A stretch of DNA of 61,280 nucleotides. Origin: a virus. Lineage: Duplodnaviria > Caudoviricetes. This document shows, in pieces, positions 425 to 40,211 of the stretch. Both the position numbers and the translations under genes were made by a program. Below the pieces are notes generated by a model that was not told the DNA's origin, made no database searches, and saw only the letters and a program-made list of their open reading frames with translations. Numbering within the stretch: position 1 is the first letter of the stretch; every line of letters starts with the position of its first letter. The stretch spans positions 1-61,280 of the IMG/VR virus record IMGVR_UViG_3300034121_000204, one strand, 5' to 3'.

Positions 425-776
425 TTTATTAATAGTAACGGCAATAGGATTTGCCGTTGTAGCAGTCAGAGTATTTATCGAATCAACCAAAAAGCCATGA
501 GAAAGTATCACATTTGTTACACAATATCTGATGATTTATGCACAGGTATAACACTAGAGGCATCGAGTTATGAGGATGCGTTAATTCAATTTAATAATAC
601 AAGTAAAATTTTGTACATATGTTTATTATCTTAATCAGTCTTTTAATGCCAGCATTATTTTTCTTTATCATGACAACGGCAAGCTTACTTAACAACAAGA
701 TACTCAGAGTTGGTGGGGTATCAATAGGCTTTTCAGGAATGATGTTATCAGTTATCAATTTAATAGTACAAGTAAT

Positions 777-1166
777 ATGTTTAAGTTATTAGCAGTAGCT
801 GTGGTGACACTGGGTGTCAACATTGCGTTCGGACAACTAGCCTACATGAGAGGCTTCAAGAATCTAGGTGATGATTCGTATTTATTAACTTTAAAAGATC
901 CTGTTGAGGCGATACATAGGTACAACTATGTACTGGACATGAACGGCATGGATACTAGCAAGGTGTACGACATCACAAAGAACCCTATTGACTTTGGGTT
1001 CTACAAGAAAGATCCTAGCTCTGACAAGGTGATCATGTGTTTCTTCTTAAAGAAGAACGGCAAGTATGACCTATTGTTTGGTGAGATTGAGGATGAGAAC
1101 ACGTACTTCTTTGACGTTGTTGATGAGAACGGTGAGGTAACAGAGTTAAAATATGTTAAGGAATGA
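777..1166 (+). CDS. hypothetical protein with N-terminal signal peptide
   Basis: MFKLLAVAVVTLGVNIAFGQ resembles a Bacteroidota Sec signal; ATGA overlap with the MTase. Confidence 0.65.
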   Translation: MFKLLAVAVVTLGVNIAFGQLAYMRGFKNLGDDSYLLTLKDPVEAIHRYNYVLDMNGMDTSKVYDITKNPIDFGFYKKDPSSDKVIMCFFLKKNGKYDLLFGEIEDENTYFFDVVDENGEVTELKYVKE

Positions 1167-2194
1167 AAATATTAAGTTTATTTGACGGAATATCAGCTGG
1201 TCAGCTTGCACTACAGCGAGCTGGCGTTGCTGTAGATGCGTACTATGCTAGCGAGGTAGACAAGTACGCAATTAGCGTAACGCAAAATGCGTACCCAAAT
1301 ACTATTCAGTTGGGTGACGTAACAAAGTGGCGAGAGTGGGACATACCGTGGGGAGAGATTGACCTAGTGATAGGTGGTTCGCCATGTCAGGGATTCAGTT
1401 TTGCAGGTAAGCAGTTGAACTTTAATGATCCAAGGTCAGCGTTGTTTTTTGTGTTCGTTGACATCTGCCACAGAGTTGCTGACGACAACCCTAAGATGCG
1501 ATTCATGTTAGAGAACGTTCGGATGAAGAAGGAGTACCAAGATGTGATTACTGGATACTTTGGAGTTGAGCCAATTGCTATCAATAGTTCATTGGTGTCG
1601 GCACAGAACAGATACCGATTGTACTGGACAAACATTCCTAACGTCACTCAACCTGATGATAAGGGTATATTGTTTAATCACATAATACAAGATAATGTTG
1701 ATGAAAAGTATTATTATTCAAAAACTGTACTTGATAGAATAGATGTATCTGAAATAAACCACGTTGGTATGGTTGGTTATAAATCAAAAGGTAAAGAGGT
1801 TGATAAGTGTGGGACTTTGTTGGCTAGACATTACAAAGGAATGCAAAGTTTACCTTATCCAATTGTAAAAGAAAGTATATTAAAAGTTCCTGAAGCAACA
1901 AAAAAGGGATACGTTGAGGTACATCCAAATGAAGGAGTTGACTTAACATTTATCAATTCAAAGACTAGACGAGGTAGACTTATGAAAAACAAGTCAAATT
2001 GTTTAACAGCTACTAACTATGACTATTGTTGGTATGACGGATATATATGCCGCAAGCTAACACCAATCGAATGCGAACGTCTACAGACCTTTCCTGACAA
2101 TTGGACGGAAGGTATATCAGACACGCAGAGGTACAAGGCATTAGGTAACAGTTGGACAGTTGACGTAGTAGCACATATATTCAAGAACTTATGA
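1163..2194 (+). CDS. DNA (cytosine-5) methyltransferase
   Basis: Motif I LFDGISAG, motif IV GGSPCQGFS, motif VI ENV, motif VIII QNRYR, motifs IX/X LTPIECERLQTFP and GNSW. Confidence 0.95.
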   Translation: MKILSLFDGISAGQLALQRAGVAVDAYYASEVDKYAISVTQNAYPNTIQLGDVTKWREWDIPWGEIDLVIGGSPCQGFSFAGKQLNFNDPRSALFFVFVDICHRVADDNPKMRFMLENVRMKKEYQDVITGYFGVEPIAINSSLVSAQNRYRLYWTNIPNVTQPDDKGILFNHIIQDNVDEKYYYSKTVLDRIDVSEINHVGMVGYKSKGKEVDKCGTLLARHYKGMQSLPYPIVKESILKVPEATKKGYVEVHPNEGVDLTFINSKTRRGRLMKNKSNCLTATNYDYCWYDGYICRKLTPIECERLQTFPDNWTEGISDTQRYKALGNSWTVDVVAHIFKNL

Positions 2195-2586
2195 AAGCTT
2201 GGCACGACTTAGCAAATGATCCATACATCTCGCTCTATCAAACTAGAGTAAGTAAATGGTACATCGACATGGGAGTTAAGATAGAGCGATTTGACGAGGA
2301 TGGAAGGGTAGAGATCAAGAACACCATGACACCAACAGAGAGCTACAGAGATTTAACAGCAGAACAACTCAAGGTCTTTGATGACCTTGGTTGGTACGCT
2401 GGATGTATAAGCTTAAATGTTGACGTACTTGAGCAGAGGATTGAGTGGTTTGAGGAGTTGTTAGAGACTGGATGTGTAGATCCTGAGGGTATTGAAAAAA
2501 GATTAGAAAAAAATCGTGAAAGATTGTTGTATTATCAACAAAGATTAGTTAAATTTGTAACCCCTAAAATCAAATCAAATGAATAA
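2191..2586 (+). CDS. hypothetical protein
   Basis: 131-aa ORF overlapping both neighbours by a few bases. Confidence 0.7.
   Translation: MKAWHDLANDPYISLYQTRVSKWYIDMGVKIERFDEDGRVEIKNTMTPTESYRDLTAEQLKVFDDLGWYAGCISLNVDVLEQRIEWFEELLETGCVDPEGIEKRLEKNRERLLYYQQRLVKFVTPKIKSNE
2550..2557 (+). promoter_or_regulatory. Bacteroidota -7 promoter box TAAATTTG
   Basis: Matches TAnnTTTG 21 nt upstream of the 2579 start. Confidence 0.55.
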
Positions 2587-3073
2587 TCAAACGCATTGGC
2601 GTAATTTAATGGCAGACAACAAGTACTTGGGTGCTTGGGACTTGGAGGTCAACGGCAAGTATGAGCCGAGAGTAGTAACAATCGAGAAGGTATATCAAGA
2701 TGCTTTTGTTGGAGAGATGGGTAAGGAGCAGAAGGTATTTATAAAGCTGAAGGAGTTCCAGAAGCCAATGGTAACAAACAGGACAAACTTCAAGAGACTT
2801 GAGACATTCTTTAATTCGTTTAATCCTGACGACTATGTTGGTAAGCAGATAGTATTGGGAGCTGAGAAGGTAAAGAGTCCGCAAGGATTGGTTGAGGCGT
2901 TGCGATTCAGCACTAGACCATTACCTAAGAAGGAGTTACCATCGTTGCCAAGTGACAAGTTGCAAGCTGCTATTGACGCAATCAAGTCAAAGGCTACAAC
3001 AGTAGACAAGGTAAGCAAGCAGTACAAGTTAACTGACGAACAGCTAAAACAACTGCAAGATGCTGAGGCTTAG
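2579..3073 (+). CDS. conserved phage protein, candidate ssDNA-binding/annealing partner of the exonuclease
   Basis: THWRNL..KYLGAWDL N-terminus; sits directly upstream of exonuclease and SSB. Confidence 0.5.
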   Translation: MNNQTHWRNLMADNKYLGAWDLEVNGKYEPRVVTIEKVYQDAFVGEMGKEQKVFIKLKEFQKPMVTNRTNFKRLETFFNSFNPDDYVGKQIVLGAEKVKSPQGLVEALRFSTRPLPKKELPSLPSDKLQAAIDAIKSKATTVDKVSKQYKLTDEQLKQLQDAEA

Positions 3074-3827
3074 GGCATCGACAGCTAGCCCTATCTTCCT
3101 AGGTGATGATGGGTTGACAGCAAAGCAGCAAGAGATGCTAGATGAGCTGCTCGATAAGATAAAGTTAACTGAGAAGCAGGCTGAGAAGAGAGATGAATTA
3201 ATAGCCAAACGTGATGCTCCTGTTGAGCTATCGGCTGGTGCAAAAACATTAATAGAGGACTATGTTGACAGAAAGATTTATGACTATCACGAGAATTTTT
3301 CAAACGCAAAGACGGAGAAAGGTTGGCTTGTTGAAGAGGAAGCTATTGAGATCTATAATAAAGTTTATTTCACCGACTACTGTAAAGTGCCTGACGACCA
3401 CGCTTATTACCATCTCGAATATAATATCCTTGGCGGTCATCCTGACGTTGTTGATTGTGAGAAAAGGAAGGTAATTGACATCAAGTCATCTTGGTCGAAG
3501 AAGTCTTTCCCAAAGACACCTGAGAAGGCGTATGACACTGGGTATCAGTGGCAAGTTAAGTTATACTTGTACATGTTGACAAAGACAACAGGTGAGCAGT
3601 GGAGAGATGGTGAGGTAGTCCATGTGTTAGTATCAACACCAGAGGAGTTAAAGCCTGAGTGGGAGACAGAGAGTATGCACTACGTGCCTGACGACTTTCC
3701 TTTGAGCTTACGTACAACGAAGGTTGAGGTGGAGCTGACAGATGATGACATATTAAAGATTGAGAGAAGATTGAGAGCAGCTAGTGAGTACGCTGATGAG
3801 TATTACCAAAAACTAATTAATAAGTAA
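3060..3827 (+). CDS. PD-(D/E)XK exonuclease (lambda-exo/YqaJ-like)
   Basis: KGWLVEEEAI, GGHPD, VIDIKSSW and YQWQVKLYL motifs. Confidence 0.8.
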   Translation: MLRLRASTASPIFLGDDGLTAKQQEMLDELLDKIKLTEKQAEKRDELIAKRDAPVELSAGAKTLIEDYVDRKIYDYHENFSNAKTEKGWLVEEEAIEIYNKVYFTDYCKVPDDHAYYHLEYNILGGHPDVVDCEKRKVIDIKSSWSKKSFPKTPEKAYDTGYQWQVKLYLYMLTKTTGEQWRDGEVVHVLVSTPEELKPEWETESMHYVPDDFPLSLRTTKVEVELTDDDILKIERRLRAASEYADEYYQKLINK

Positions 3828-3844
3828 CCAATAAACAAATAAAT

Positions 3845-4186
3845 ATGAGTGCATTTAAGATGAAGGGTGTAGTTAAAGTGATTAAGCCTACACAACAAGT
3901 GTCAGACAAGTTTAGCAAGCGTGAGTTTGTAGTAACTGACAACAGTGATGATAAATTTTCACAGGACATAATGTTTGAGTTGACGCAAGACAAGACAGCG
4001 TTATTAGATAGTGTTATGGAAGGGCAAGAGGTAGAGGTATCTTTTAACTTACGTGGTCGTGAATGGAAATCTCCAACAGGAGAGGTTAAGTACTTCAATA
4101 CGTTAAATGCTTTCAAAGTTGAGTCAGATGGAGCAGCACCAGTAGCTGCTACAGTTGAGACTGACGATGAGGGATTACCTTTCTAA
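3845..4186 (+). CDS. single-stranded DNA-binding protein, DUF3127-type
   Basis: FSKREFVV, VSFNLRGREW, YFNTLNAF and acidic tail ending DDEGLPF. Confidence 0.85.
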   Translation: MSAFKMKGVVKVIKPTQQVSDKFSKREFVVTDNSDDKFSQDIMFELTQDKTALLDSVMEGQEVEVSFNLRGREWKSPTGEVKYFNTLNAFKVESDGAAPVAATVETDDEGLPF

Positions 4187-4510
4187 GCTATGGATTTTGT
4201 TATATTTTACGTGTTATTCTCTGGGTTCTTTACTTACGGAGTAACACATGCGGAGCATGACAACACGCTAGATGTGTTGATTAAATTATTTTTATCACTA
4301 ATCTTCGGATCAGTAATGATGCCTGTATTTTTAGGTAGCTGGTTTGATTTAAATAACAAGAAATGATTGATATAACAATTAAAATAAATGAGAACTGCTC
4401 GGCATCATTCAAAGTAATGAATGATGCTACAGTTTTTGAGGCTAGAGAGACAATACTGCATGCATTGCAGACAGCTGGCTACACTGAAAACTCAATAAAT
4501 GAGATATTAG

Positions 4511-4518
4511 TACCTTTG
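4511..4518 (+). promoter_or_regulatory. Bacteroidota -7 promoter box TACCTTTG
   Basis: TAnnTTTG match 18 nt upstream of ATG 4537 followed by an A-rich leader. Confidence 0.6.
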
Positions 4519-4536
4519 TGTTTAAAATAAATAAAT

Positions 4537-4884
4537 ATGGAGACAGCTAAATTTATCGGAACATTGTTCCAGTCGCGAGACATGATGCACTTGCAACATT
4601 TACAGACAACATCATTTGCAGAGCACAAGGCTTTGGGACATTATTATGATGAGATTCTTGAGCTAACAGACTCATTTACTGAGAAGTACTTTGGTCGTAA
4701 CAAACGAATTCCTATCACTATTCCTGAGTCAAAGGCTATGAATGCTACTGATCACTTGAAGTCAATGCAGAAATTGATTGAGGCTGAGGCTGACTCTGAG
4801 AACTACCCATGTGACTTAGAGAACATCTTAGATGAGATGTTAGGTCTTGTTAACAAGACGTTGTACTTGTTGACGTTAGTATAG
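4537..4884 (+). CDS. ferritin/Dps-like four-helix protein (DUF5856-like)
   Basis: HLQHLQTTSFAEHKALGHYYD...TDSFTEKYFG pattern and C-terminal NILDEMLGLVNKTLYLL. Confidence 0.75.
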   Translation: METAKFIGTLFQSRDMMHLQHLQTTSFAEHKALGHYYDEILELTDSFTEKYFGRNKRIPITIPESKAMNATDHLKSMQKLIEAEADSENYPCDLENILDEMLGLVNKTLYLLTLV

Positions 4885-5147
4885 TTCTTTACCTTTGGTA
4901 AGGAATATGTAAAGGCTTTTAGCATTGAGCCCAAATCAATGCTATTTAAAAAAAAAAACGCTGATGTTCGGCATCAAAGAGTGTACCTGCTAGCAACTCA
5001 ATAGGTTAAGCGTGTCCTACAGGTTATGGTAAGTTGATTCATACCATAACCACAAAAGTTCATGGTGGACAACAGTTATAGTTCTGTGGTTAACCCAACA
5101 TACTGGGAAAAACTATATGCCGATAGGTATGTCTAGTCGGCATTTTT
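4885..5147 (+). ncRNA. candidate structured non-coding RNA or leader
   Basis: Intergenic region packed with stems: 4920-4944 (9 bp perfect), 5022-5051 (10 bp perfect), 4962-4976, 5094-5107, and 5117-5143 followed by a T-run; TACCTTTG box at 4890-4897. Confidence 0.5.
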
Positions 5148-5167
5148 AAATTGTAATCTAATATAAT

Positions 5168-13968: not shown

Positions 13969-14133
13969 ATGATAACAGTTGAAGAAATGATAGCTGTAGT
14001 TGAGAACTACATCTACGACAAGAAAAAAGTAAGGGTGCGCATCGAATTACGATACCACCCTTTACTTATTCATTCAGACCTTAGCAAACTTAACTATTGT
14101 TATGGTGTTGCTTTAGATTACTTTAAAATCTGA
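13969..14133 (+). CDS. small hypothetical protein (54 aa)
   Basis: Read manually (MITVEEMI...DYFKI); converges on and overlaps the stop of the giant gene. Confidence 0.5.
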   Translation: MITVEEMIAVVENYIYDKKKVRVRIELRYHPLLIHSDLSKLNYCYGVALDYFKI

Positions 14134-17100
14134 TCGGCTGTTTGGCCATTCTTAATTTTTGTTAAATCAGAAACAGTAGGCTCACCTATAGCCTTCATTA
14201 ACTTTAGGTACTCTCTCCCTTGACGTTCTGTCAGACCGCCATTCCTTTCTATGAACTTGATTTCATCAATGGCTGTTTCGGATTCTTTCTTAGCTTTTAC
14301 CATATCAATCTCCCAAGATTTTAGATTACGTCCAAGATCTTTCTGTACAGTCTCGTATCTGTCGTATTGCTTCTCAGTGACAGCTTTCTTTTTGATTCTT
14401 TTTATGTAATCTCTAGATATTGCTCCTACATCTTTTGGTAACAATCCAGTAGAATATAAAAGTGTAGGAAACACAGCTAATCCTACATCTTTACGATCAG
14501 CTTCTAAAAGTTTTTTTGGAGTCTCTCTTCCTTGATAATCATCAATAAATTCTCCAGTTGCATATAGCTTACTTATCTCACCTAGTTCTTTGTATGTATC
14601 CCCAGCAATACCAATCATTCCATACTTTCTATCGTTATCATCACTTATGTATAACTGATATGTTGCTTCTTTCTTGATCTTTTCAATATAATCAGCTTTA
14701 GCTTTATCATCCATTGGATCTTCACCTTTTAACTCTAGCACTTTATTTCTGCTATTAACAGCATCTTTTATTTCTTTATCGTCCATCCAAGGGTACTGCC
14801 CTAATCCTAAATTCAATCCCATAGTTACTATATCATCTAGCATTGGAAGTGGAGAAATAATATCATTTAAAACACTTTTTATTGGGTTCTTAGTAGCATT
14901 GATAATTTTCTTTTTCTTTGTTTCTTCATCATCTTCATCACCAAGTAACCAAGCTGCAATTTGATCATATAGAAGTTTAATTCCGTATCCAAGTAATTGG
15001 TATGTAGCTAATTCAGCACCAAGTCCACGAAGTGATCTCCACGCTATTGCTTTATCTTCATTAGTTGCAGTACCGCTTGAAACAGTAATTAAATCATTAT
15101 ACATCCTAGCCTTTTGGTTAATTATAAATGACGCAAATGGAAGGAAAATTTTTCTAGTCATTTGAACATAAGGATTCTCGCTTGCTAAGAATTCACCTGC
15201 TAGCATTGGATCAGATATATTCTGCTGTCTATCAACCATAATCTGAGCATATTCAGCAGCTTCTTTATCCATCTTATGATTCTTCCAATCAATGTCAGTG
15301 TTTATTCCTCTACGATTTAAATTTTGCAAGTAGTAAGACTTAAATGATGACCTAGCAACCCATACATCTGGCTTAACGAGTAATTGTTTCAACCACCACT
15401 GATTTATATCAGCAATCTTTTTAAACACTTGATCTGTTGTTTGACCTTTCGCTTCTAATTGTCTATCAATTGAATCAATTGTTGATTGTGATTCAAAGCC
15501 ACGATTTGAAATTGGCATACCTGTTTCATCAAGCCACGCATTAAAATCAGCATTTACAAAATCTAATCGACCAGCATTCATAAATGTATTTACAAGTACT
15601 GGAGTTGTCTGCATTAATGTCTGATTGACACCAGCTAGTGCCTTACCAACACCTAGTGATGTTACGTAATTGACAAATTTATTTAGGTACTCTATTGTAT
15701 CTCTTGGAACTACATTTTTACCTTTAGCTCTTTTAATGTAAGTGCTTATTCTTCTTTCAAGTATTGTTCTATCATCAGATTCAGGAACTAATTTTTTGAA
15801 TTCTTTTGAGCTAAGGAATCCATCTACTTGTCTAATTGCAGATGCTGTATTAATATCAGTTAATGCAGATTTAAGTGCCTTTGAGTTATTGGTATCAAAA
15901 TCAAGACTAATATATCCATTTGTAGGTCTTGTTCTTGTTGTTTCCATTAATACACCTGACTTATTCTTATCAACATTATTAATAGATACATTGAAAGATC
16001 CATTCTGATTAGTTAAACTTTCATCAAGTCCTGTATCTTTAGAAGATAAATTTTTTATTGAACGTGGTGTATAGCTTAAATCACTAGTAAGCATAGTGTT
16101 GTATACAGATAAACTCACATCAAATAATTCTGGTTTATATTTTGACCATTCGTTAATCCACCAATCAACAGCCTCTAAATTATTTTTGGATGCGTTAGCA
16201 TTAATTACATCCATATCCATTGAGTCTACATTAAGCTTATCATATACCTCTTTATATAGCTCACCCATTTTCTTTTCTTTAGAGTTTCCATCTTCAATTA
16301 GTAAATCAATTGATTCTTTTAATATCTTAACTCTATTTTGAAATTCAGCTTGCGTTTCAGACTCAGTACCAATAATGTTTCTTTTTAGCTCAGCAAGCAT
16401 TCCCCTTTCATATACGTTCTTAGCATCCATGAAATCTTTTCCTTTAGCAAATAATTGTTTTGAGTATTTGTCAATTATTTGGTTATGCTGTCTAATCGCT
16501 TTATTAACTCCGTTAATTACATTTAGCAACCCCATCTTTCTCATTATATCCATTGAGTTGGAAACACCACCAAACATCTTCTCCATTAAGTTTGGAAGTG
16601 AATATAATTGATCGCTATAAACTTTACCTATTGTTTTAATTCCAAATAATCTTAATGCTCTAGCGACCTTACCTCTATTAACAAGTGATTTAACATTTAA
16701 AGCTCCCTCATAAGAACTAGCTGCTGCCTCAAGACCACTTGTTATTTGGTTAGTTATAAAGTTATCTACTCCTTCAACAATCTTAATTGATTCTCTAGTT
16801 GACATCTCATTCAAGTCAATCTTTAGAACTCTTTTCATTAAGTCCTTCTGACTGTCTTCGAATATAATCTCCTCTCCAGTCATAGGATCAACACCTGTCT
16901 TGAACATTGTCTCTAATGTAGATTTCATTCCATTCATTCTTGACACTAAGAACTCTTTTGCTTTTGATTCTTTGTCAACAGTTTCGTCTGGATTTTCTTT
17001 TAATGAATTAATTATTTTTTGAATTTCATTAAATGACATATCTTTTGATAGTCCTTCAATATCTTCATAAGTAGCAATTAGTTCATCTATCTTTATTTGT

Positions 17101-20100
17101 TCTTGACGATCAATTTCATTCTTAGAAAATTCAGATATATCAGCTATGTTTGCTGCTTGTTTCATCACATACTCTTCATCTTTTCTACGTGATGGCTTAA
17201 CGGCATTCTTAACTTTCTCAGCTATCTCCATGTAAGCATCAATATCCTCAACAAGTGATGGATCAATCTTGGTAAACTCTTTAGCCATACCAACTACCTC
17301 AGCTTGGTTGTCAGTCTTTAAATCCTTACGAATGCTTTTTCTTAATGCAAATGCCTTGCTTAATCTATCTTGATAGTCAGCTCTTTGAAATACTCTCTCA
17401 GCATAATTTGTAAATCGCTCAACCATGACAGGATTGTCAAGATTTAAATAACTTATACGTTTTATTAATACGCCTGCTTGTGGAGTTTTAATTTTACCAA
17501 GTTTAACCATATTACTGATGGCATCACTAAGCATCTTTCTCTTAATATTTAAGTCAGCCTTAGCATCACGAGCAGCACGAGCTTCCATTCTAATCTGATC
17601 TTTTAATGCCGTATACTCGTTGACAGTTACCTTTTTTGCTTTTGGCTTACCTAATACTTTAGCAACAGATGGAGCTTTAACTTGCGCTTTAAAAGCATCT
17701 TTTATTTCCTCTTCACTAAATCCTTCTTCATTTAAATATTGTTTGATTGCAGCATCAGATATACCATTATCCCTTGCTATTACGAGAATATCTACTGCTT
17801 TTTTTGGTCGTCCTTTAGAAAATAATACATCAATATTTTTTATTTCTTTTGATGTTATTTCTTTACCACCTAAAAGAGAAGCAAGTGATCCATCAATAAA
17901 TTCATTAAGATTGATATTTTGAAATTGCTCAGGAGTTAATTTATCAAATGCCTTGAACTTAGATTTAACATAACTAAATACAGCGTTTAGCCAATTCTTA
18001 AATTTAGATTTTTTACCTGCTTCAATTAATGTTTCACCTTTATTAGCAATAAGTTCAGCTAGTGCTTCTTCTCTTGCTAGTTCAACATCTCCTAACTCAG
18101 CTATTTTTCTTTTCAATACTTCAGTTCCTTCTAAAAGATTATATCCTTTGTCAAGTAATTTAGGATTATTTTCTTTTAGGAATCCCATCCAAACATGTGC
18201 GAATTCATGTATAGCTGTATTTGAATTTGCTTTTTCAGGGTTCAAAAATACCTTTCCATCTTTTGTAAATCCATAAACTATCTCGCCATCTTTAACAAAT
18301 TTTTTAACTTCTGGATTCTCAAGTGCTTTATTAAATTCTTCTTGTGTTTCAACTACAGTAACTGAAGGAAATGCAAGTCTAAGTTTCCCTAAAAGTTTTT
18401 GAAGTTCAGTCATTTTAGTTGAAATCTTAGCACCTCTAAATGCTTTTATTCCTGCTATTGGACCACTTGCTGCTACTGCTTGATCTATTGCCTTATTAGG
18501 AGATGGTAACTTACCTGCCTTATCTTCTTTATTTAAGTAGAATGATTTACCATACATCTCTGGAAATATATCAGCTGCATGCACAGGAGATTCTAAAATA
18601 CCAATCAACCCACCTTTTACACCATATGGATAGTTTCTGTGTTTTGGATTTGTTATTCCAGGGTTTAATACATCAACACCAGTAATGCCAATAATATGAT
18701 TAGAAGGTATTTCTTTTGTTGATTCATCTTGTATTGCATTATTTATTGTTTGAAGATGTATATACTTATAGTAAGATGCATCCTTATTACCAACTAAAGC
18801 TAGTGCTGATTTACTTCTAGGTTTCCCTGGTTTTGTTTCTTTATTTAATTGAATCCCACCTGTAAATAAAAATCTAGTAACATTTGCTCTTTCACCAATA
18901 GGCTTTAAGTTATTCATGTTATCAAGAAGTTCATCTATAGTTTTATAGTTATTTTCTTTTATAAATGATATAACTTTACTATCTGGATTAACAGCTGATA
19001 TATCTTCAATTAAACCATTTAATGAGTTAACTCTTTCTGCTTTATTAAATTTTTTCTTTATTGTATCAGAAGCAAATCTAAATAACGCTTCATTTGTTTG
19101 AATAGAATCTTGTCCCATTTTAACAATGGCCATAGGTACTTGTCCTTGCGGAAGTTTTCCTTCAGACCAAAGTCTATCAAATAAATCTTTATTTTTAGAG
19201 TATACCTCTTGTGCTCTTGAAAGCATTCCTTCAGCTTCTTTTTTATCAGTGTTAGCCCAAGCACTATTCTCATTTCCTTCCGTAAGATTAAATCCTATAC
19301 CACCATTTACATCAATTGTATTTCCTGTAAATTCATTCTTTACATTTCCAGATGTCAACTGATCAGATATAGTAAATATCATTGGTATACCATTATAATC
19401 TGATATATCTTTTATTATACCTCCTTTAAATGCTGCCTTTAATTTATCTCCAAATCTTTTAACTAAAGAGCCTATATTTACTTTACTCTTAGTAGTTAAA
19501 TTAGAAGGAACGTCAAAATTAGCTATATCTTCAGACATAGCATTCATTTCTTCAACTACTGAGTCAACTTCTGGAGCTTGTGTAGCTAAATTAGGATTAA
19601 ATACTATTATATTTTGTATATCTTGTTTTTGAGTTTTAAGGTTAGTATCTGTAAATCTAATAGCTCCAAAACCTTGATTTTCTAACTCATCATAAACTTT
19701 ATTTATATCTTCATCAGATAATGATGTTTCAAATCTAGGATCTAATAATTCGAATAAATTTAAATCATTAACATCCCATCCTTCTTCTTTAGATTTTAGC
19801 CCTAATTTATTTATTACATCAAATGCTTGTTCTTCTTCTGCAATTATATTTTCATCTATATCAAATTCAGATACAACTCCTTCATTTTCTTTTGTATATT
19901 CTTCAGCTTGACCTTTATCTTCACTCACAAACAAAGGGGTTTCTTTATTTACATTTGTTAAGTCACTAACATTTCCACCATGATAAACCTTTATAGTTTG
20001 TTTTCCTTTTTGGAATTTAGGTTGTCCACCAAATAATCCACGTAATTTATTTACTTCTTCTTGGACACCCCTGCCTTCGATAGGGCGATTGCCAAGATCT

Positions 20101-22748
20101 GTTTCTGGCTTCTCGGTTTCCCCGATTGGCCCTTCTCCTTCCCTGATTTCAGGTTGTCCTTGTTCAGTTCCCTGATATTGAACGCCACCGCCTTCTGCTG
20201 CGACTTCTTCGACTGGTTTTGTGCTTTCTTTAACGGCATTTTCTGATATTGTTTTTAGTTCATTATTAATCTCGTTAACCCTATTTGAAATTGGAGTAAC
20301 AAGAGCAGGATCTTTTCCTTCCATCTGCTTACGCAAATTTTCTCTCTCATTTATTAATTTAAATGATGTGTATTTATCATCGCTATTTAAATTATCAGGT
20401 ATTTGTCTTAGAATTCCTTCCGATTCTTTTAGTGAATTTAATTCTGCTTGACCTTGATCTTTTGTAATTTCACCAGATAAAATTCTGTCTTTTATATTAA
20501 GAACAAATAATTCTTTAACGTCTTTACTATTTATTGCATTCTCAATATTCTGTAGTTGATACTTATCAAGCTGTTGTTTAGCTGTTAAAGTTGCTTGAGT
20601 TAATGACTGCATACCAGCACCACCTAATAAACCAAGCATACCTGCTTTATTAGCCCTTTGAAAAACCTCACCCCAAGTTTTAGGATTCTCAAAATATTTT
20701 TTACCCTTAGCTTGATTTAGTAATTCTTTAGCTCCTATCTCTGTTAATTCTTGAGCTGCCTCGGTTGAATACTCAATTAAACCAGCCCCAGAAATTTTTA
20801 ATACTTTATTTGCAATAAGCCCCTTTAATTGTTTTTCTACAGAATTTTCAATCATTTCAGCCGTAGCATTTTCTGGCAATTCTTTTAGTGATTTAGAAAA
20901 AATATAATTAACTACTTTACTATTTACAGGTGATTTACTAAACGCTTTAGTTAAACCATATTTCTCAAGTAAAGATGTAACAGCACCAACTGAACCAGCT
21001 AATAATATTTTTTGATATTCAGGAACATCTTTAAACTCTGGGCTATTCATTTGGTCTCTAAAATTAGTATATGAAGCACCAAATAAACCCATAGTAGCAC
21101 CAACAGGTGAACCAGTCATAGCACCAGCTAAAGCAGATCCACCAGAATTTGCTAAACCAAAAACAACTTGTTCAAAAGCATTTCTATTTTCTGATGACAA
21201 ATATTCCTCACTGAACGACTCAGGTGCAAATTGAGATGTCAACACGCCCTTTGCTGATCCTCTTGCATATTCACCTCCTTCAATAACTGCTCTTGCAGCT
21301 TGCTCCATACCTTGAACAAAAGAGAATGCAGTTCCAGACAAAATGTTACCTCTTTCTGATTCAACGACAAAAGCATTTCCAGCTATATTCTTTATATCTG
21401 ATTGCTCATTTGATATGTTTCTATAGTCATTCTTTAACAACTTTACATTGTTATCAATGTCATATTTGCGTTGATTTATTTTTGGAAGATAGTTAGTATT
21501 GTAATCTTCTTCTGTAATTAATCCCTTTTTAAATGATTCATTAACTGTTTTTTCATATTCATTAAGCTCAGATACCTCTTTTTTAATATCTTCTTTCTTT
21601 AAAATAGTCTTAGTAATGTTGTCATTTATTCTCTCTATCTCATATTTATCGAAAGCAGCAGCTGATCTATATTTGTCTTTGGACATATAGTCTAACTTCT
21701 TTTCTCTTTCTTTATCTAATTGAGGAAGTAATTCGTCTAATTCTTTTTGCAAGAAAACTACATTATATGGATTTGTTTTCTTCTCTACCTCTATACGATC
21801 TCTTAAATCATTTATTTGTTTTTGTTTTCTTATATATTCGTCATTAGCGATATTTACTTCTAAAAATCCTTTAAGTAATTTTGATTCTTCATTATCTCTA
21901 TCAGTTGTCCAGTTGTCAAGATTTATGAACTTACTTTCTCCAGTAATACTATTTTTAATTTCAATACCATCGTATCCATATCCAGCAGGGCCAACTTGTA
22001 AATAATCGTATTTCTTTAATTTGCCTTGTAATTTAGATACAACATCATCTTCATTTGATCCAATTAAATCTGAATCTATTGATGATAGAACATCATTTAA
22101 GTCGTTTTCTTTTTGAACAGCATTAACATCTTTTTCGTATCTTCCACTTTTAACGTATTCAATATATTTCTGATCATATTCCTTCTTTTGAGTTTCATCA
22201 GCTATATTAAATAATTTACCATCAACTATTCCTGGAGTAAATGCTTTTTCTTCAGGTGCTTTTTTAGCTAATTCCGCTTGTCTTTTTTTCTCTTCCTTTT
22301 GTAATTTATCAGCTGTTAAATTATAAGTCTCTTTTACTTTCTTTTGATCTTGTAAATCATAAGATATTTCAACTGGATTACCTTTTAAGTCAGCTATTTT
22401 AGTAGCATTTTTATTAAGGTAGTCATATCTTTCTTTTAAATCTCCAGACTTTAACTCTTTATAATCACCTGATCCTGTAATATCTTTATACCATTTGCCA
22501 GCAGATCTTTTATAGTTTTCGTTATTCCAAGGATTTACATAAATACCGTCATCTTGTGATGAAGATTCCGAACGCTGTTTTCGAGCCGTTTCTTGCGTAA
22601 CCAATAAAGCACGACCATCCTTTTCCGTTGATTGTGAAACCTCTTTTTTTTTTACTTTGTTGATTCCATCATCAGCAACAATAACAGGCTTGATAGATCT
22701 ATTGATTCCATCGTCAGCTACAATAACAGGTTTAATTTCGTTTGGCAT
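14118..22748 (-). CDS. giant virion/ejection polyvalent protein (2876 aa) with ART-like and zincin-like domains
   Basis: VYHGG...LFVS...AEEY...IIVFNP (ART-PolyVal-like); VYGF...VFLNP...AIHEFAHVW...EEALA (HExxH zincin); last gene of the podovirus ejection-protein block. Confidence 0.8.
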   Translation of the reverse strand: MPNEIKPVIVADDGINRSIKPVIVADDGINKVKKKEVSQSTEKDGRALLVTQETARKQRSESSSQDDGIYVNPWNNENYKRSAGKWYKDITGSGDYKELKSGDLKERYDYLNKNATKIADLKGNPVEISYDLQDQKKVKETYNLTADKLQKEEKKRQAELAKKAPEEKAFTPGIVDGKLFNIADETQKKEYDQKYIEYVKSGRYEKDVNAVQKENDLNDVLSSIDSDLIGSNEDDVVSKLQGKLKKYDYLQVGPAGYGYDGIEIKNSITGESKFINLDNWTTDRDNEESKLLKGFLEVNIANDEYIRKQKQINDLRDRIEVEKKTNPYNVVFLQKELDELLPQLDKEREKKLDYMSKDKYRSAAAFDKYEIERINDNITKTILKKEDIKKEVSELNEYEKTVNESFKKGLITEEDYNTNYLPKINQRKYDIDNNVKLLKNDYRNISNEQSDIKNIAGNAFVVESERGNILSGTAFSFVQGMEQAARAVIEGGEYARGSAKGVLTSQFAPESFSEEYLSSENRNAFEQVVFGLANSGGSALAGAMTGSPVGATMGLFGASYTNFRDQMNSPEFKDVPEYQKILLAGSVGAVTSLLEKYGLTKAFSKSPVNSKVVNYIFSKSLKELPENATAEMIENSVEKQLKGLIANKVLKISGAGLIEYSTEAAQELTEIGAKELLNQAKGKKYFENPKTWGEVFQRANKAGMLGLLGGAGMQSLTQATLTAKQQLDKYQLQNIENAINSKDVKELFVLNIKDRILSGEITKDQGQAELNSLKESEGILRQIPDNLNSDDKYTSFKLINERENLRKQMEGKDPALVTPISNRVNEINNELKTISENAVKESTKPVEEVAAEGGGVQYQGTEQGQPEIREGEGPIGETEKPETDLGNRPIEGRGVQEEVNKLRGLFGGQPKFQKGKQTIKVYHGGNVSDLTNVNKETPLFVSEDKGQAEEYTKENEGVVSEFDIDENIIAEEEQAFDVINKLGLKSKEEGWDVNDLNLFELLDPRFETSLSDEDINKVYDELENQGFGAIRFTDTNLKTQKQDIQNIIVFNPNLATQAPEVDSVVEEMNAMSEDIANFDVPSNLTTKSKVNIGSLVKRFGDKLKAAFKGGIIKDISDYNGIPMIFTISDQLTSGNVKNEFTGNTIDVNGGIGFNLTEGNENSAWANTDKKEAEGMLSRAQEVYSKNKDLFDRLWSEGKLPQGQVPMAIVKMGQDSIQTNEALFRFASDTIKKKFNKAERVNSLNGLIEDISAVNPDSKVISFIKENNYKTIDELLDNMNNLKPIGERANVTRFLFTGGIQLNKETKPGKPRSKSALALVGNKDASYYKYIHLQTINNAIQDESTKEIPSNHIIGITGVDVLNPGITNPKHRNYPYGVKGGLIGILESPVHAADIFPEMYGKSFYLNKEDKAGKLPSPNKAIDQAVAASGPIAGIKAFRGAKISTKMTELQKLLGKLRLAFPSVTVVETQEEFNKALENPEVKKFVKDGEIVYGFTKDGKVFLNPEKANSNTAIHEFAHVWMGFLKENNPKLLDKGYNLLEGTEVLKRKIAELGDVELAREEALAELIANKGETLIEAGKKSKFKNWLNAVFSYVKSKFKAFDKLTPEQFQNINLNEFIDGSLASLLGGKEITSKEIKNIDVLFSKGRPKKAVDILVIARDNGISDAAIKQYLNEEGFSEEEIKDAFKAQVKAPSVAKVLGKPKAKKVTVNEYTALKDQIRMEARAARDAKADLNIKRKMLSDAISNMVKLGKIKTPQAGVLIKRISYLNLDNPVMVERFTNYAERVFQRADYQDRLSKAFALRKSIRKDLKTDNQAEVVGMAKEFTKIDPSLVEDIDAYMEIAEKVKNAVKPSRRKDEEYVMKQAANIADISEFSKNEIDRQEQIKIDELIATYEDIEGLSKDMSFNEIQKIINSLKENPDETVDKESKAKEFLVSRMNGMKSTLETMFKTGVDPMTGEEIIFEDSQKDLMKRVLKIDLNEMSTRESIKIVEGVDNFITNQITSGLEAAASSYEGALNVKSLVNRGKVARALRLFGIKTIGKVYSDQLYSLPNLMEKMFGGVSNSMDIMRKMGLLNVINGVNKAIRQHNQIIDKYSKQLFAKGKDFMDAKNVYERGMLAELKRNIIGTESETQAEFQNRVKILKESIDLLIEDGNSKEKKMGELYKEVYDKLNVDSMDMDVINANASKNNLEAVDWWINEWSKYKPELFDVSLSVYNTMLTSDLSYTPRSIKNLSSKDTGLDESLTNQNGSFNVSINNVDKNKSGVLMETTRTRPTNGYISLDFDTNNSKALKSALTDINTASAIRQVDGFLSSKEFKKLVPESDDRTILERRISTYIKRAKGKNVVPRDTIEYLNKFVNYVTSLGVGKALAGVNQTLMQTTPVLVNTFMNAGRLDFVNADFNAWLDETGMPISNRGFESQSTIDSIDRQLEAKGQTTDQVFKKIADINQWWLKQLLVKPDVWVARSSFKSYYLQNLNRRGINTDIDWKNHKMDKEAAEYAQIMVDRQQNISDPMLAGEFLASENPYVQMTRKIFLPFASFIINQKARMYNDLITVSSGTATNEDKAIAWRSLRGLGAELATYQLLGYGIKLLYDQIAAWLLGDEDDEETKKKKIINATKNPIKSVLNDIISPLPMLDDIVTMGLNLGLGQYPWMDDKEIKDAVNSRNKVLELKGEDPMDDKAKADYIEKIKKEATYQLYISDDNDRKYGMIGIAGDTYKELGEISKLYATGEFIDDYQGRETPKKLLEADRKDVGLAVFPTLLYSTGLLPKDVGAISRDYIKRIKKKAVTEKQYDRYETVQKDLGRNLKSWEIDMVKAKKESETAIDEIKFIERNGGLTERQGREYLKLMKAIGEPTVSDLTKIKNGQTADQILK
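20051..20239 (-). CDS. nested (+1 frame) small basic protein, MPLKK...QILAIALSKAG type
   Basis: Resembles stand-alone phage basic proteins of the MPLKKG...NIRE...QAVAIAL type; A-rich leader before its ATG. Confidence 0.65.
   Translation of the reverse strand: MPLKKAQNQSKKSQQKAVAFNIRELNKDNLKSGKEKGQSGKPRSQKQILAIALSKAGVSKKK
22660..22736 (-). repeat. 42-nt-period tandem duplication encoding IKPVIVADDGIN twice
   Basis: Protein starts MPNEIKPVIVADDGINRSIKPVIVADDGINK; the two DNA copies differ at synonymous positions. Confidence 0.85.
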
Positions 22749-35562: not shown

Positions 35563-37992
35563 CTACTTAGGACTAAATGATTCTAAATCGAAACCATCCA
35601 AAGAATCCTCTGTACTCTCAAAATTAACTGGAGGTAAGTTATTCTTTCTTTGGTTAATTAGCTCAGACTGTCTGCTTGCTTGTAAGTCAACACGTTTGTC
35701 TTTAGCCTCTTCTTTACTTTTCTCACGCTTCATTAAGTTATCTGTTTCGATACCTTTAAGTTGCATGTTGTACTCAAACTCTTTTTCCATTAGTTGAGCT
35801 TTGATAGCAGCCTCAGCTTGCATTTGCTGAACAGCAAAATTCATCTCTGCTTCTCTTAATTGTATTTTAGATTGAGCTTCAAGTTGAAGTAGTTGAGCTT
35901 TAGACTCAGCAGCAGCTTGTTGAGATTGAATGTTACTTTGCATCTGCATTTGGAACTGCATTTCTTGATCCTTTTGCTTCTGCTCAGTTCTTTTCTTTCT
36001 CTTTAATTTAAGCATCTCATTAGCTAGCTTGATATTGTTTATCATTCTAATATCAATAGCATCTTCTAAGTCAATAGTTTGTTGCTGTAAGGATATTTGA
36101 ATATTAGCCTCAAGCATCTGTTTTTGCTCTTCATCTGGAGCTATCTCAATGAATATACCAAAGTCATGTAAATAAAGGTCTTTAATGTCATCAAGGATAG
36201 CAACATTGTACTTACCTATCTGCATTGCAAACTCTTCAGCAAAGTCAGCGTATTCTAATATATCAGCAACACGAATAGAAAGACATTCAGCTAATTGTTT
36301 TGTCATCTGTAGACCACCTTCTAATATATGTCTTGTAGCTGTATTCGAACTTAAAGCAGCTAATTTCTGTACACCAACTAAAGCGTCAGGATTTGGAGTA
36401 GATCCATCCCTTACCTCATTAATACCAGTAACGTCACGTATCATGTTTAGATAGTGATTATAGTTACCTATCAATGCAGCCATTTTAGATTGGCCACTAT
36501 TTGAGTTAAGTTCTTGAATAGGAACTCTAGCATTATTGAAATCACCGTCTTGCGTATAACTACGTCCAATAACACTACCAGTCTGGAAGTACATTTTTAA
36601 TGCATCCTCTGGATTATATGCTGCGCCTGTACCTAAGTCAACTTCATTAATACCATCAGCATCAATGAATACACCATCAGGAACAACGCGTGCCATTACT
36701 TGTTGTAATTTAAGGTGCGTTAATTGTATCTGATCGGCAAAAGGAATCATACGTCTAACTAATGACTCATTGTTTCCTTTATACATTCTAGGAGCAAATA
36801 CCACATAGTTAGGAAGAGCTTTCTGTGTTGCTGATTTAGGACGTACCATGTTTTTCATCATGTCCCACTTCAGAATAATATTAGATCCGCCAACTATAAT
36901 ACCCTCGTACCAAACATCCTTAACTGTCTCTATTTTTTCAAACATCATTCCTTCCTCTGTAGGAGGGTTAAATGACTCATCTTTTCTTATTACTCGCTCA
37001 CCACCATTCTCAAGTAATTTCTTTTTCCAAACAAACTTCTTGCTTGTCTTATAGTTAAAGTAAAGTAATGTAACTACTTCATTTAGAAATGCGCTATCTT
37101 GATAATTACGGATAATAGGGAAATAGTCATACCACGCTGAAGCAGCGTTACGTATCTCATTTAGCTGCTCATCAGTAAGATTTGGATCTATTTTTAATAG
37201 CTCAGTGTAATGAACTTGCTTAACCTCACCAAAATAATAGCAGTCTGAAAAGTCTGGCTTCTCAGTGTAGCTATGAATAAGATTAGAAGGATCAACGTAA
37301 TCAATTTTCAATCCATCATTTACTAAAAATGTATGTCTTATCGCTGCTTTTCCTAAAACAGTTAAATCGTAGTCAACTAACTTCTTTACCTTAGGAAAGT
37401 CATTCATTTTAAGAATTGTGTCAATAGCAACTTCCTCAGCAATCTCTATAGATGGCTTGTATTTAAGTTGCATATATAATGACAGCTCTTCATCATTCTC
37501 AGGTAGCTCCTCAGGGTTAACATTGAACGCATCAATACCAAACTGATCTTTTGTTAGTTGTAAGAAATCCTTAGCAACCATGTCAGCTTCAATCATATCC
37601 TGGAATATGTTTTTCTTTTCAGCAGACATTACATCTTGAGATTCGGCTTTGATTGTGAAAAGCCTATCGTTCATTCCATTTACGACAATATCAACGAACT
37701 TTGGGATAATAGGAATTGGAGTCCAATCAAGATTAAGCATGGACATATCTCCATTTGTAGATAGCTCATCTTTATATTTTTGAATAGGCTGTTCACCTCT
37801 TGCGTATAACCTTAAGCGATGGAATTCACCCCACTGATCATAGAAACGACATGTGTTAGCTTTTCTCTTGAACCACTCACCTTCAACCGCCTTTGCTACT
37901 CTTAAACCATATTCCATTGTGGCCTTTTCCTCATCAGTAGCCATTTGGTTAGGAAAGGGTGATTGATAAATTACAACTGATAATTTCTCCAT
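35563..37992 (-). CDS. portal protein
   Basis: 809 aa after terminase; PIIPKFVDIVVNG, IRDVTGINEVRDG; Q-rich C-terminal barrel. Confidence 0.9.
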   Translation of the reverse strand: MEKLSVVIYQSPFPNQMATDEEKATMEYGLRVAKAVEGEWFKRKANTCRFYDQWGEFHRLRLYARGEQPIQKYKDELSTNGDMSMLNLDWTPIPIIPKFVDIVVNGMNDRLFTIKAESQDVMSAEKKNIFQDMIEADMVAKDFLQLTKDQFGIDAFNVNPEELPENDEELSLYMQLKYKPSIEIAEEVAIDTILKMNDFPKVKKLVDYDLTVLGKAAIRHTFLVNDGLKIDYVDPSNLIHSYTEKPDFSDCYYFGEVKQVHYTELLKIDPNLTDEQLNEIRNAASAWYDYFPIIRNYQDSAFLNEVVTLLYFNYKTSKKFVWKKKLLENGGERVIRKDESFNPPTEEGMMFEKIETVKDVWYEGIIVGGSNIILKWDMMKNMVRPKSATQKALPNYVVFAPRMYKGNNESLVRRMIPFADQIQLTHLKLQQVMARVVPDGVFIDADGINEVDLGTGAAYNPEDALKMYFQTGSVIGRSYTQDGDFNNARVPIQELNSNSGQSKMAALIGNYNHYLNMIRDVTGINEVRDGSTPNPDALVGVQKLAALSSNTATRHILEGGLQMTKQLAECLSIRVADILEYADFAEEFAMQIGKYNVAILDDIKDLYLHDFGIFIEIAPDEEQKQMLEANIQISLQQQTIDLEDAIDIRMINNIKLANEMLKLKRKKRTEQKQKDQEMQFQMQMQSNIQSQQAAAESKAQLLQLEAQSKIQLREAEMNFAVQQMQAEAAIKAQLMEKEFEYNMQLKGIETDNLMKREKSKEEAKDKRVDLQASRQSELINQRKNNLPPVNFESTEDSLDGFDLESFSPK

Positions 37993-40211
37993 TATTTTAT
38001 TATTTCGCTTCTAGTTCCACGATTGTCGTATCTTACAAATTTAATACTTATTTTCGATTCTTTTTTCTCTGTTTCAAATAAATGCTTACGTGTAGCCATA
38101 ATTGCTAAACCAGAACTAATCGAGGCATCATGTTTAGTCCTATTATTTGGATCAAATTTAGCCCAATCTTCCAAAGTCTTAGTAAAGTACATTGATCCCA
38201 TACAGTCAGGATCTCTGTAAGTTCCCTCAGTATCAAGCCCTACATACTCCTCGATATATGTCTCAATTGATGAGGCGTGAGCTTGCCTAACATCCTCAGA
38301 TGAGTTAGGTATCCCACCTATCTCTATCTCGGTCTTAGATAGCTTTGTTTTATGCTTATCTGGCCTATTCATTGAGTAAGCTCTGTACCCTCTGTTCTTG
38401 AAGTGATATAGTAGTCTAGCCTTGTTATTCTCTGCCAACACTGGCATACCATAAAACACACAAGCCATTAACACATCCTCAAAAAATATCTCAGCAGTCT
38501 GAGGTCTTGCTATGTACTCTAAGAAGAACTCATTTGTTGGAGCGTTAGCCATGTGATACTTAGTCATGCCATGCAACGCACCATTAGATCCACCGCCTCC
38601 AACAACACCAGATATATCGTATGGATCGCATCCAAACGCACCTAAGTGCTCATTACCTGGATACTTCTTACCACCTCTAGTTATTACATTATTTCGCATC
38701 TTATGCTCTGGAATCCAAGAAACCAAGAACCTACCATTCTTATCTGGAGTCCAAATAACCTCGCTATCTAGCTTACCATTCTTCCAATGGAAGTACCCTC
38801 GTGTAATTACATGCTCCTTAATCAATGAGTCATTGTAGTCAATCTGTTGGTAAATCTTTGTCAAGTTGAATACTGACTGCTTAGATTCATCTCTAAAAGC
38901 ATGAGATTCAGTCCTTGGGAACTGACGGTAAAATTCATTCAATGCATCAGAGTCACTTTTCAATGCGGCTACCTCATTGTTCCACCAAGTAATAACGCCT
39001 TGCGTTATCATCTCTCCATCAATACCTTTAACTGGCTTACTAGGATCTTCAAATACAGGCCAACCGAACTCATCAATATATCCCTCAATATTCCACTCCA
39101 TTGGAATGAATAACGAATACAGACCACTCTTTGTCTGACCATTTGCAGACCTTACCTTTGGATCACTGTCGTTGTATAACTTCTTGAAATTCTCACCACC
39201 TTTATTTAATGCATTTGATGTCGAACCCATCATACACTTACCAACAATCTTACTACCTAACCTAAGACAAGTCTTTGTTACTCGCCAGTTATTTAATATG
39301 TTCTCAGGCTTCTCCCATTTACCAGACTCGTCATGTACAAGCATAAGTAACTTCTCACCATCGTAACTGTTGTCAGCTGTGTTCTTCCAGTCAATTGTTG
39401 TGTCAAGTCCATCAATCTCATCTTGATTTTCTTGATCCATGTTCTTACGTGTAATCTTACTAGCAGGAACACGAAAGGCAAGTTCAGTCTTTGGATTATC
39501 CATACCATCTTGGATAGGCTTGAAGAAGAATGGATAGTTCCTTACAATTGGAACAACTTTATCGGTAAACATCTTCTTAGCATCAGATCCAGTCTTAGAT
39601 AGTATACCAATCCTAGAGTCTCTTACTATTGTTCCAGTGTTACTTATTTCAGCACTAGACATGAATGAGAACCCAGAACGTCTGTTCTTTAAGTAGTCCA
39701 TACCAAACGACCTGTTGTCAGCTTTGCATGCTTCCCAATAGATATAGAATATTCTGTTTGATTCTCTGAAGTCAGGCAGACCAATGTCAATCTTCGTCCA
39801 TTGAAGATACATATAGTGCGTACCTGTTATATACGTTGGCTTGCTGTTATTTATAAACCAATAACCATTATCTCGCCTATCAAATTCGCCTTCAATAAAG
39901 TCAACGTACTTTGACTTAAATACGTTATCTCTTCTATTCCAATCAAATATTGTCTTGATCTTTTGAAGCTCAGATGAGTACTCTTGCGCTTGCCACTTAT
40001 TGTTAGTATTTGCTACGTTGTCAGGCCTTGATGGTAGTGCTACCTTTATACCATTTATGTCGTATATCTCTCCAATCATACCATCCTTAGATATGACAAC
40101 AACATCATAATCTTTATTGTACCCATACTCCCAAGACTTATGTCTGTTTTTGGTTATCAATACATTCTTAGGAATGTAATCATCAAGTATAATGTAAAGA
40201 TTATTTTCCAT
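37992..40211 (-). CDS. terL: terminase large subunit
   Basis: KNRRSGFS Walker A variant, LVHDESGKW Walker B, MGST, FGCDPYD nuclease motif. Confidence 0.92.
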   Translation of the reverse strand: MENNLYIILDDYIPKNVLITKNRHKSWEYGYNKDYDVVVISKDGMIGEIYDINGIKVALPSRPDNVANTNNKWQAQEYSSELQKIKTIFDWNRRDNVFKSKYVDFIEGEFDRRDNGYWFINNSKPTYITGTHYMYLQWTKIDIGLPDFRESNRIFYIYWEACKADNRSFGMDYLKNRRSGFSFMSSAEISNTGTIVRDSRIGILSKTGSDAKKMFTDKVVPIVRNYPFFFKPIQDGMDNPKTELAFRVPASKITRKNMDQENQDEIDGLDTTIDWKNTADNSYDGEKLLMLVHDESGKWEKPENILNNWRVTKTCLRLGSKIVGKCMMGSTSNALNKGGENFKKLYNDSDPKVRSANGQTKSGLYSLFIPMEWNIEGYIDEFGWPVFEDPSKPVKGIDGEMITQGVITWWNNEVAALKSDSDALNEFYRQFPRTESHAFRDESKQSVFNLTKIYQQIDYNDSLIKEHVITRGYFHWKNGKLDSEVIWTPDKNGRFLVSWIPEHKMRNNVITRGGKKYPGNEHLGAFGCDPYDISGVVGGGGSNGALHGMTKYHMANAPTNEFFLEYIARPQTAEIFFEDVLMACVFYGMPVLAENNKARLLYHFKNRGYRAYSMNRPDKHKTKLSKTEIEIGGIPNSSEDVRQAHASSIETYIEEYVGLDTEGTYRDPDCMGSMYFTKTLEDWAKFDPNNRTKHDASISSGLAIMATRKHLFETEKKESKISIKFVRYDNRGTRSEIIK

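Follow-up and report, generated by a model that had tools for sequence, protein, structure and literature searches.

The window analysed here is the whole 61,280-bp stretch of IMG/VR virus record IMGVR_UViG_3300034121_000204, a complete viral genome with direct terminal repeats, and our subject is a small gene that lies entirely inside a giant gene on its minus strand. The giant gene (14118..22748, minus strand), known as an open reading frame (ORF) and its translation, has 2876 codons, encodes a 2876-aa product and is the final gene of the late structural operon. Within it, on the same strand, an ATG-initiated ORF of 62 codons plus a stop runs from 20239 to 20051; its ATG begins 2509 nt downstream of the giant gene's own ATG, which places it at a +1 offset, and its product, P0001, is a small basic protein of the DUF6496 / phrog_2423 type. 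An initial annotation, made from the sequence without database searches, had proposed a small gene with a clean stop in the +1 frame of the 2876-aa gene, without naming a strand; the ORF is indeed there, on the minus strand, and its translation is exactly the peptide quoted. Read in the giant frame, the same DNA (20049..20240, minus strand) encodes a linker of 64 residues (giant residues 837-900), rich in Glu, Gly, Gln, Pro and Val, that joins the N-terminal module to the next domain. Over the nested ORF this reading is 22% Glu and 17% Gly, with a single Tyr and no Phe, Trp, Met, Cys or His, in agreement with the acidic linker that had been described. The GC content peaks here, reaching 0.51 at 20050-20199 (0.50 for the nested ORF itself) versus about 0.25-0.35 in the flanks and 0.32 for the whole giant gene. 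Taken with the evidence below, these features make it very probable, in our judgement, that the ORF is a real DUF6496 / phrog_2423 protein-coding gene, embedded whole at a +1 offset in the giant virion-protein gene.

Family membership is the first line of evidence. P0001 matches Pfam PF20106 with 29.1 bits (E 1.3e-6, residues 12-56 on model positions 4-47 of 58), above the gathering cut-off of 24, so that the predicted likeness to DUF6496 holds up in a profile search. When all six frames of the genome were searched with PF20106, the ORF again scored over the cut-off (28 bits), without stops, and was the sole DUF6496 match in the genome. Among 5.8 billion proteins we found 132 homologues at E ≤ 1e-3, the best that is not near-identical having an E-value of 7e-14; nearly all are 50-70 aa long and are 55-70% identical to P0001 across 90-100% of the query. 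In an alignment of 29 sequences, P0001 has all 15 invariant and all 8 nearly invariant columns, and it is 58-72% identical to the other members, near-identical ones aside. Phrog_2423 is matched by 23 of these 29 aligned relatives (best E 2.9e-12), and P0001 itself matches it weakly (E 0.0059, 17.6 bits). In length, in the Met-Pro-Leu start and NIRE-type helix, and in a Gly/Lys loop followed by an AIALS-type second helix, P0001 agrees with the DUF6496 / phrog_2423 members, which bears out the resemblance to stand-alone phage proteins that had been noted from their MPLKK, NIRE and AIALS features. The AlphaFold2 model, built with the family alignment, has a predicted local distance difference test (pLDDT) score of 87.2 and consists of helices at residues 11-29 and 45-55 with the Gly/Lys loop between them, and the nearest ESM Atlas clusters are 86-100% viral. 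P0001 fits the family in protein length. In gene arrangement it differs, since DUF6496 database members are free-standing genes of about 50-100 aa, whereas this 62-aa gene is wholly nested, has a GC content of 0.50 and is unannotated. A search of the literature found no paper naming DUF6496.

The nesting is not peculiar to this genome. IMG/VR contains 72 viral loci that encode a relative of P0001, and 20 of them (L007-L017, L019-L025, L035 and L037) have an intact small ORF nested, again at +1, in a host ORF without a stop for 760 to more than 2800 codons. In none of the 20 is the giant frame interrupted over the small gene, and the +1 frame is likewise open, as had been anticipated for the giant genes of relatives, in each host gene that carries the nested copy. 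Every one of the 21 nested sequences (the window plus these 20) retains the ATG and a Met-Pro-Leu N-terminus, which correspond to the initiator end of the stand-alone proteins. One further locus contains a decayed DUF6496 copy (L072:5001-5066), of which only the last 21 codons are left, reused as a linker in a giant gene; as this remnant shows, DNA of this kind can persist in the giant frame when the small gene is no longer intact. In the remaining 51 loci the relative lies outside any long same-strand ORF. Some stand-alone copies are placed after a terminase and a likely portal gene (L029), and others (L067-L073) are flanked by an ORF of 433 aa and one of about 980-1260 aa. We considered whether such flanking ORFs are split halves of the window's giant protein and rejected a simple split or fused pair: tblastn gave no matches, and the comparison yielded only one weak local match, between the 1263-aa ORF of L070 and giant residues 1740-1830 (25% identity over 91 aa). 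In L054 a stand-alone DUF6496 gene (about 4975-5150) lies directly downstream of an ORF (2-4789, more than 1595 aa) with Pfam LPD38, a polyvalent-protein domain, and looks like the un-engulfed state of the arrangement.

Outside IMG/VR, the sole six matches in 185,579 species genomes (L159-L164) are short contigs in metagenome-assembled genomes (MAGs) labelled Woesearchaeota, Omnitrophota, Saccharibacteria, Bathyarchaeia and Gammaproteobacteria; two of them have the nested form inside long ORFs, and all six are probably mis-binned phage contigs. A tree of 54 rows places every one of the 21 nested rows in a single starred set of 27, and the stand-alone rows L018 and L067-L073 are interspersed among them, so that at least two changes of state are needed. 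The tree is built on 69 columns and resolves little more; L160 and L162, for which no Met-Pro-Leu start was found, were omitted, and L159 is marked 'alone' in it although it is nested.

Selection provides the second line of evidence. We codon-aligned the window with the 20 intact loci, the L072 remnant being omitted from all selection counts. Over the nested region the small frame has a ratio of nonsynonymous to synonymous substitution (dN/dS, Jukes-Cantor) of 0.22 and a mean amino-acid identity of 73%, whereas the giant frame, read from the same bases, has a dN/dS of 1.5 and a mean identity of 51%; these all-pairs ratios reuse related sequences, and only the ten-pair test described below is independent. 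The 120 codons upstream served as a control, for the 15 loci that share that module (L012, L020, L022, L023, L024 and L035, whose upstream module is different, were omitted), and here the giant frame has a dN/dS of 0.42 and a mean identity of 38%. Nucleotide differences per site at giant-frame positions 1, 2 and 3 of the nested region are 0.387, 0.229 and 0.194, an inverted pattern in which the 'silent' position of the giant frame is the most conserved and the wobble site of the small frame the most variable. Constraint on the synonymous sites of the giant gene had been put forward as a check, and those sites prove to be the least variable positions. In the upstream control the third position is the most variable, as is normal, and the +1 frame carries 8-20 stops per locus (10 in the window). 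All 10 disjoint nearest-neighbour pairs have more changes at position 3 of the small frame than at position 3 of the giant frame, with summed counts of 149 versus 51 (sign test p 0.001). The small frame is thus the one under purifying selection, and the giant frame over the same bases is a loosely constrained Glu/Gly-rich linker at the junction of exchangeable modules. This is the situation expected of an embedded overlapping gene, a complete same-strand ORF in another frame with both frames maintained.

A comparison of nested with stand-alone copies shows how one stretch of DNA accommodates both readings. Nested copies have a GC content of 0.47-0.56, whereas stand-alone copies in low-GC phages are at 0.31-0.37, like their genomes; the initial annotation had attributed the local GC richness to dual coding, and the AT-richness of stand-alone copies in equally AT-rich phages supports that attribution. 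If ten low-GC stand-alone copies are read in the frame equivalent to the giant one, each contains 3-8 stops. The nested copies are recoded relative to the stand-alone ones, with wobble positions that avoid T and favour G: T occupies 2% of them in the window and 1% over the 21 copies, and G occupies 56% and 53%, respectively. The giant gene's own third codon positions are 39% T and 11% G. Among the codons of the nested copies, GGT, AGT, CGT, CTT and ATT are at 0% and GCT and TCT at 1%, and AAG, CAG, GGG, GCG and TCG are dominant. The wobble base of the small frame is the first base of a giant-frame codon. A wobble position without T therefore means that the giant frame has no stop and no codon for Phe, Tyr, Cys, Trp, Leu (TTR) or Ser (TCN), and a wobble position that is mostly G means that it reads mostly Glu, Gly, Ala, Val and Asp. 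This one rule accounts for the composition of the linker, the open giant frame and the GC peak, and under it both frames are maintained: what is preserved is the sequence in the small frame, and an open, hydrophilic reading in the giant one.

What surrounds the nested gene differs between loci. We compared by blastn the ±1500 nt around the ORF in 19 loci (the short loci L017 and L022 were left out of this count); 162 of the 171 pairs align over the nested gene, and of these alignments 135 break off no more than 40 nt from the small gene's stop, 25 inside the ORF and 2 more than 200 nt further on. The nested gene is thus an island of nucleotide identity whose 3' edge lies at a module boundary. 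After the linker, the window and L015 have a domain weakly like the ADP-ribosyltransferase (ART) fold, L007 has a module that is also present in L001, L013 and L023 share another and L012 and L014 yet another; the upstream side also differs in four loci. It is a matter of speculation that the island acts as a recombination joint for module swapping, and the pattern would also arise if selection acted on nothing but the small gene and modules were exchanged at any point of the unconstrained DNA beside it.

A second family has been embedded in the same manner. In three close relatives (L001-L003; N-terminal module 78-82% identical), the window's DUF6496 junction is taken up by another linker with another +1 ORF of 43-46 codons (L001:3833-3973, L002:3833-3964 and L003:3833-3964; products P0003 and P0004). 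Small basic ORFs of this P0003 type have 41-52 codons and begin Met-Pro-Phe-Lys-Ser-Lys. Relatives of P0003 are encoded by 355 stretches in IMG/VR, and all 80 loci that we kept (L079-L158) are nested at a +1 offset, at a junction of the same sort as in the DUF6496 cases, in host ORFs open for 762 to 2705 codons. Over 68 distinct sequences the dN/dS is 0.06 in the small frame versus 3.2 in the giant frame, and the wobble positions (T 2%, G 55%) follow the same rule as in the DUF6496 copies. Stand-alone relatives also exist (52 representatives at E ≤ 1e-3, 43-70 aa). The P0003 type has no Pfam family, and NCBIfam gave no match for P0001, P0003 or P0065. That the DUF6496 and P0003 families are related to one another was considered and rejected (hhalign probability 0.7%). 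The two also occur together: the contig with the decayed L072 copy has an intact P0003-type ORF nested in a giant gene (L104:4001-4135), about 190 nt before the DUF6496 remnant.

The start of the nested gene has features of its own. Its leader (20240..20269, minus strand), which lies within giant coding sequence, is unstructured and, as previously described, A-rich, with an A at -3 and no Shine-Dalgarno sequence. There are 13 A in positions -20 to -1 (of the giant gene's 211 internal ATGs, 3.3% have at least as many), and the -30 to +30 region has a folding energy of 0.0 kcal/mol versus a mean of -7.0 (standard deviation 2.9), which none of the other internal ATGs equals. The A at -3 is present in 19 of 20 related loci, and in 18 of 20 the nested start ranks in the lowest 5% for structure among the ATGs internal to its host gene (median 0.65%). 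An unfolded A-rich start is also found where the upstream module is unrelated (L020, L024 and L035). According to Baez et al. (2019, PMC6847099), Bacteroidetes lack Shine-Dalgarno sequences and tune initiation by mRNA structure and an A at -3; the nested start, with its weak structure and its A at -3, is likewise without such a sequence and in these respects resembles Bacteroidia-type leaders. The long ORFs of this phage also have A/T-rich leaders without Shine-Dalgarno sequences. The motif TAnnTTTG, the -7 promoter element of Bacteroidota, occurs 104 times in the window versus 80.3 ± 8.8 expected, a count reached by 0 of 100 shuffles. Together, the leaders and the excess of the motif are consistent with a Bacteroidota-type host. 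No minus-strand TAnnTTTG was found between 20240 and 23749, although a single 8-mer makes a crude test; this makes the long late transcript the most likely message for the nested gene.

Based on these features, we propose that P0001 would be translated separately, from its conserved ATG on the long late mRNA, with initiation that may be independent of a Shine-Dalgarno sequence at the A-rich, unfolded site, by analogy with Bacteroidia. The principal competing account is programmed +1 (or -2) ribosomal frameshifting, in which case the DUF6496 peptide would not be a free 62-aa protein but the C-terminal end of a truncated product, with the 836-aa N-terminal module before it. Both ORFs are on the same strand and transcript, and in one 1075-aa database protein (P0125) a P0003-type small ORF is in frame at residues 1034-1074 (88% identity), the last 41 residues, with a giant-protein-like region N-terminal to it. 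P0125 may be a fusion that occurs in nature, may point to frameshifting or may result from an indel in a metagenome contig, and the last would count against the frameshift account. For a fused product there would be no call to preserve the ATG and the Met-Pro-Leu start, yet both persist throughout the 21 sequences. A stop shuts the small frame 5 codons before the ATG in the window (2-20 codons elsewhere), so that a shift could take place only within a very short stretch. Moreover, the ORF persists in L020, L022, L024 and L035 despite completely different upstream sequence, and no longer, in-frame fused form of P0001 was found at E ≤ 0.001 among proteins of 110-2000 aa, although this last is weak evidence. 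We regard frameshifting as improbable.

A little less probable again is that the small gene is a captured and silent relic, whose DNA is kept as a linker or a recombination joint and whose open frame is a by-product. In its favour are the end of nucleotide homology near the small ORF's stop in most aligning pairs, the variation of the flanking modules on both sides between loci and the reuse of the last 21 codons as a linker in L072. Conservation of the DNA or of the linker would not, however, place the changes at small-frame wobble sites in every one of the ten pairs, nor would it give so low a dN/dS in the small frame and so high a one in the giant frame, or keep 15 invariant residues, the ATG, the stop and the unfolded A-rich start. 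There is, finally, the matter of chance. Redrawing synonymous codons from the giant gene's own usage, with the giant protein held fixed, left the +1 frame open in 1.3% of 5000 draws for the window and in 0.16-22% over the 21 sequences (geometric mean 2.2%), so the nested ORF exceeds chance expectation. The idea that it is simply the Lys/Arg-rich, stop-poor frame to be expected when a Glu-rich linker (GAA/GAG) is read one base later correctly predicts a basic +1 frame and draws on the loci at the upper end of that range, but it is refuted by the Pfam score, the homologues, the selection in favour of the small frame and the confident structural model, and we give it almost no credence. Family membership, conserved nesting and the selection pattern thus all favour the real nested gene that the initial annotation had inferred.

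The product would be a lysine-rich protein of about 7 kDa with two predicted helices, made alongside the virion proteins. Within this proposal the small gene would be the older reading, over which the giant ORF grew, because stand-alone relatives are so many. As to function, the weakest step, we tentatively suggest a small accessory protein that binds nucleic acid or sits inside the capsid, produced together with the virion proteins; the suggestion is based on the predicted basic two-helix build, the late-operon setting and the association with giant virion or polyvalent genes (nested in 20 loci and adjacent in L054), and we would place less than even confidence in it. A partnership specific to the adjacent domain is unlikely because the neighbouring modules vary between loci. 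P0001 does not fit a spanin, that is, an Rz1-like outer-membrane lipoprotein, since it has no cysteine, and hence no lipobox cysteine, and no hydrophobic N-terminus.

Several points weigh against the picture of a separately translated and functional gene, in addition to the reuse of related sequences in the all-pairs ratios. The exact P0001 sequence is absent from a collection of 15 billion proteins and so has never been called as a gene. A Foldseek search of the P0001 model against the PDB returned nothing at E ≤ 0.001, and the matches in BFVD are only to uncharacterised small phage proteins. A start site within an ORF that is itself being translated has to contend with elongating ribosomes, and P0125 means that fused products have to be reckoned with. 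With regard to function, the neighbours of stand-alone copies mostly belong to no family: in two sets searched against PHROGs and Pfam, 8 of 10 and again 8 of 10 proteins were unmatched. With regard to the host, the Bacteroidota-type assignment is inferred only from the leaders, and the six genome matches, being in MAGs of unrelated phyla, are uninformative.

On the minus strand the late operon runs from the gene for the terminase large subunit (37992-40211) through that for the portal (35563-37992) and several 'virion structural protein' families to the giant gene, whose translation contains an HExxH motif. The domain right after the linker (19524..20036, minus strand) was modelled by AlphaFold2 with a pLDDT of 78.7. 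The initial annotation had placed the nested gene just before an ART-like domain; the position is correct, and the ART label has weak fold support, since Foldseek against the PDB gave no match at E ≤ 0.001 and its top rows, nearly all of them ART-fold proteins, are AcrIF11 (E 0.029), RES, the toxins MbcT and ParT, diphtheria toxin and PARP2. The giant gene contains two more ATG ORFs in its +1 frame on the same strand, at 19058-19273 (71 codons) and 21239-21376 (45 codons), both on the minus strand; neither is a lysine-rich linker reading. The +2 frame of the giant gene has no same-strand ATG ORF of at least 35 codons. Among GenBank phages, blastn of the region and tblastn of P0001, P0097 and P0021 found no match.

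These observations bear on annotation beyond this genome. Gene callers forbid same-strand nested genes, and the relatives within other giant genes escape annotation in the same way. The locus provides clean quantitative evidence for same-strand dual coding in a dsDNA phage, and the explicit rule, a wobble position without T and rich in G, can be used to scan for further nested genes. DUF6496 / phrog_2423 also becomes testable, as mutations that are silent in one frame can separate the two products. A broader and more doubtful idea, which we put forward with less than even confidence, is that the linkers of giant virion (polyvalent-type) proteins are a general shelter for old small genes: at least two unrelated basic families would have been swallowed at +1 by the wobble rule, the island that ends at the stop could be a joint for swapping downstream effector modules, and the small proteins, made in step with the giant one, may share the capsid with it. 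If the island is such an exchange joint, this would link polyvalent domain shuffling with the similarity of linkers between otherwise unrelated genes.

Embedded same-strand phage genes are already known, so the arrangement is not new in kind. In phage lambda, Rz1 lies inside Rz in the +1 frame and has its own start; the likeness to our case is that of a small complete gene wholly within a larger same-strand gene at +1, with both frames maintained. The two differ in that Rz1 is a lipoprotein that acts with Rz as a spanin, whereas P0001 lacks the cysteine of a lipobox. Searches of the literature found no paper on the nested arrangement described here. Overprinting in its classical direction is reviewed in PMC8227390; the direction here would be reversed, with the embedded gene older and the host gene's linker the novelty. 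The host gene recalls, and may belong to, the polyvalent proteins (Iyer et al., 2017, PMC5512222): it is a giant multi-module late gene beside virion genes, with an HExxH motif and a domain only weakly ART-like, and in a relative (L054) the giant ORF next to a stand-alone copy has LPD38. The window's giant protein differs in matching no Pfam family (zero matches at E ≤ 1). In a passage search of PMC5512222 the words 'overlapping', 'frameshift' and 'linker' each occur 0 times, so nested genes lie outside the polyvalent description published there. Set against these systems, what differs here is a probably ancestral embedded gene with a secondary host linker, an explicit wobble rule and the recurrence of the arrangement, with unrelated families, at the module junctions of giant genes.

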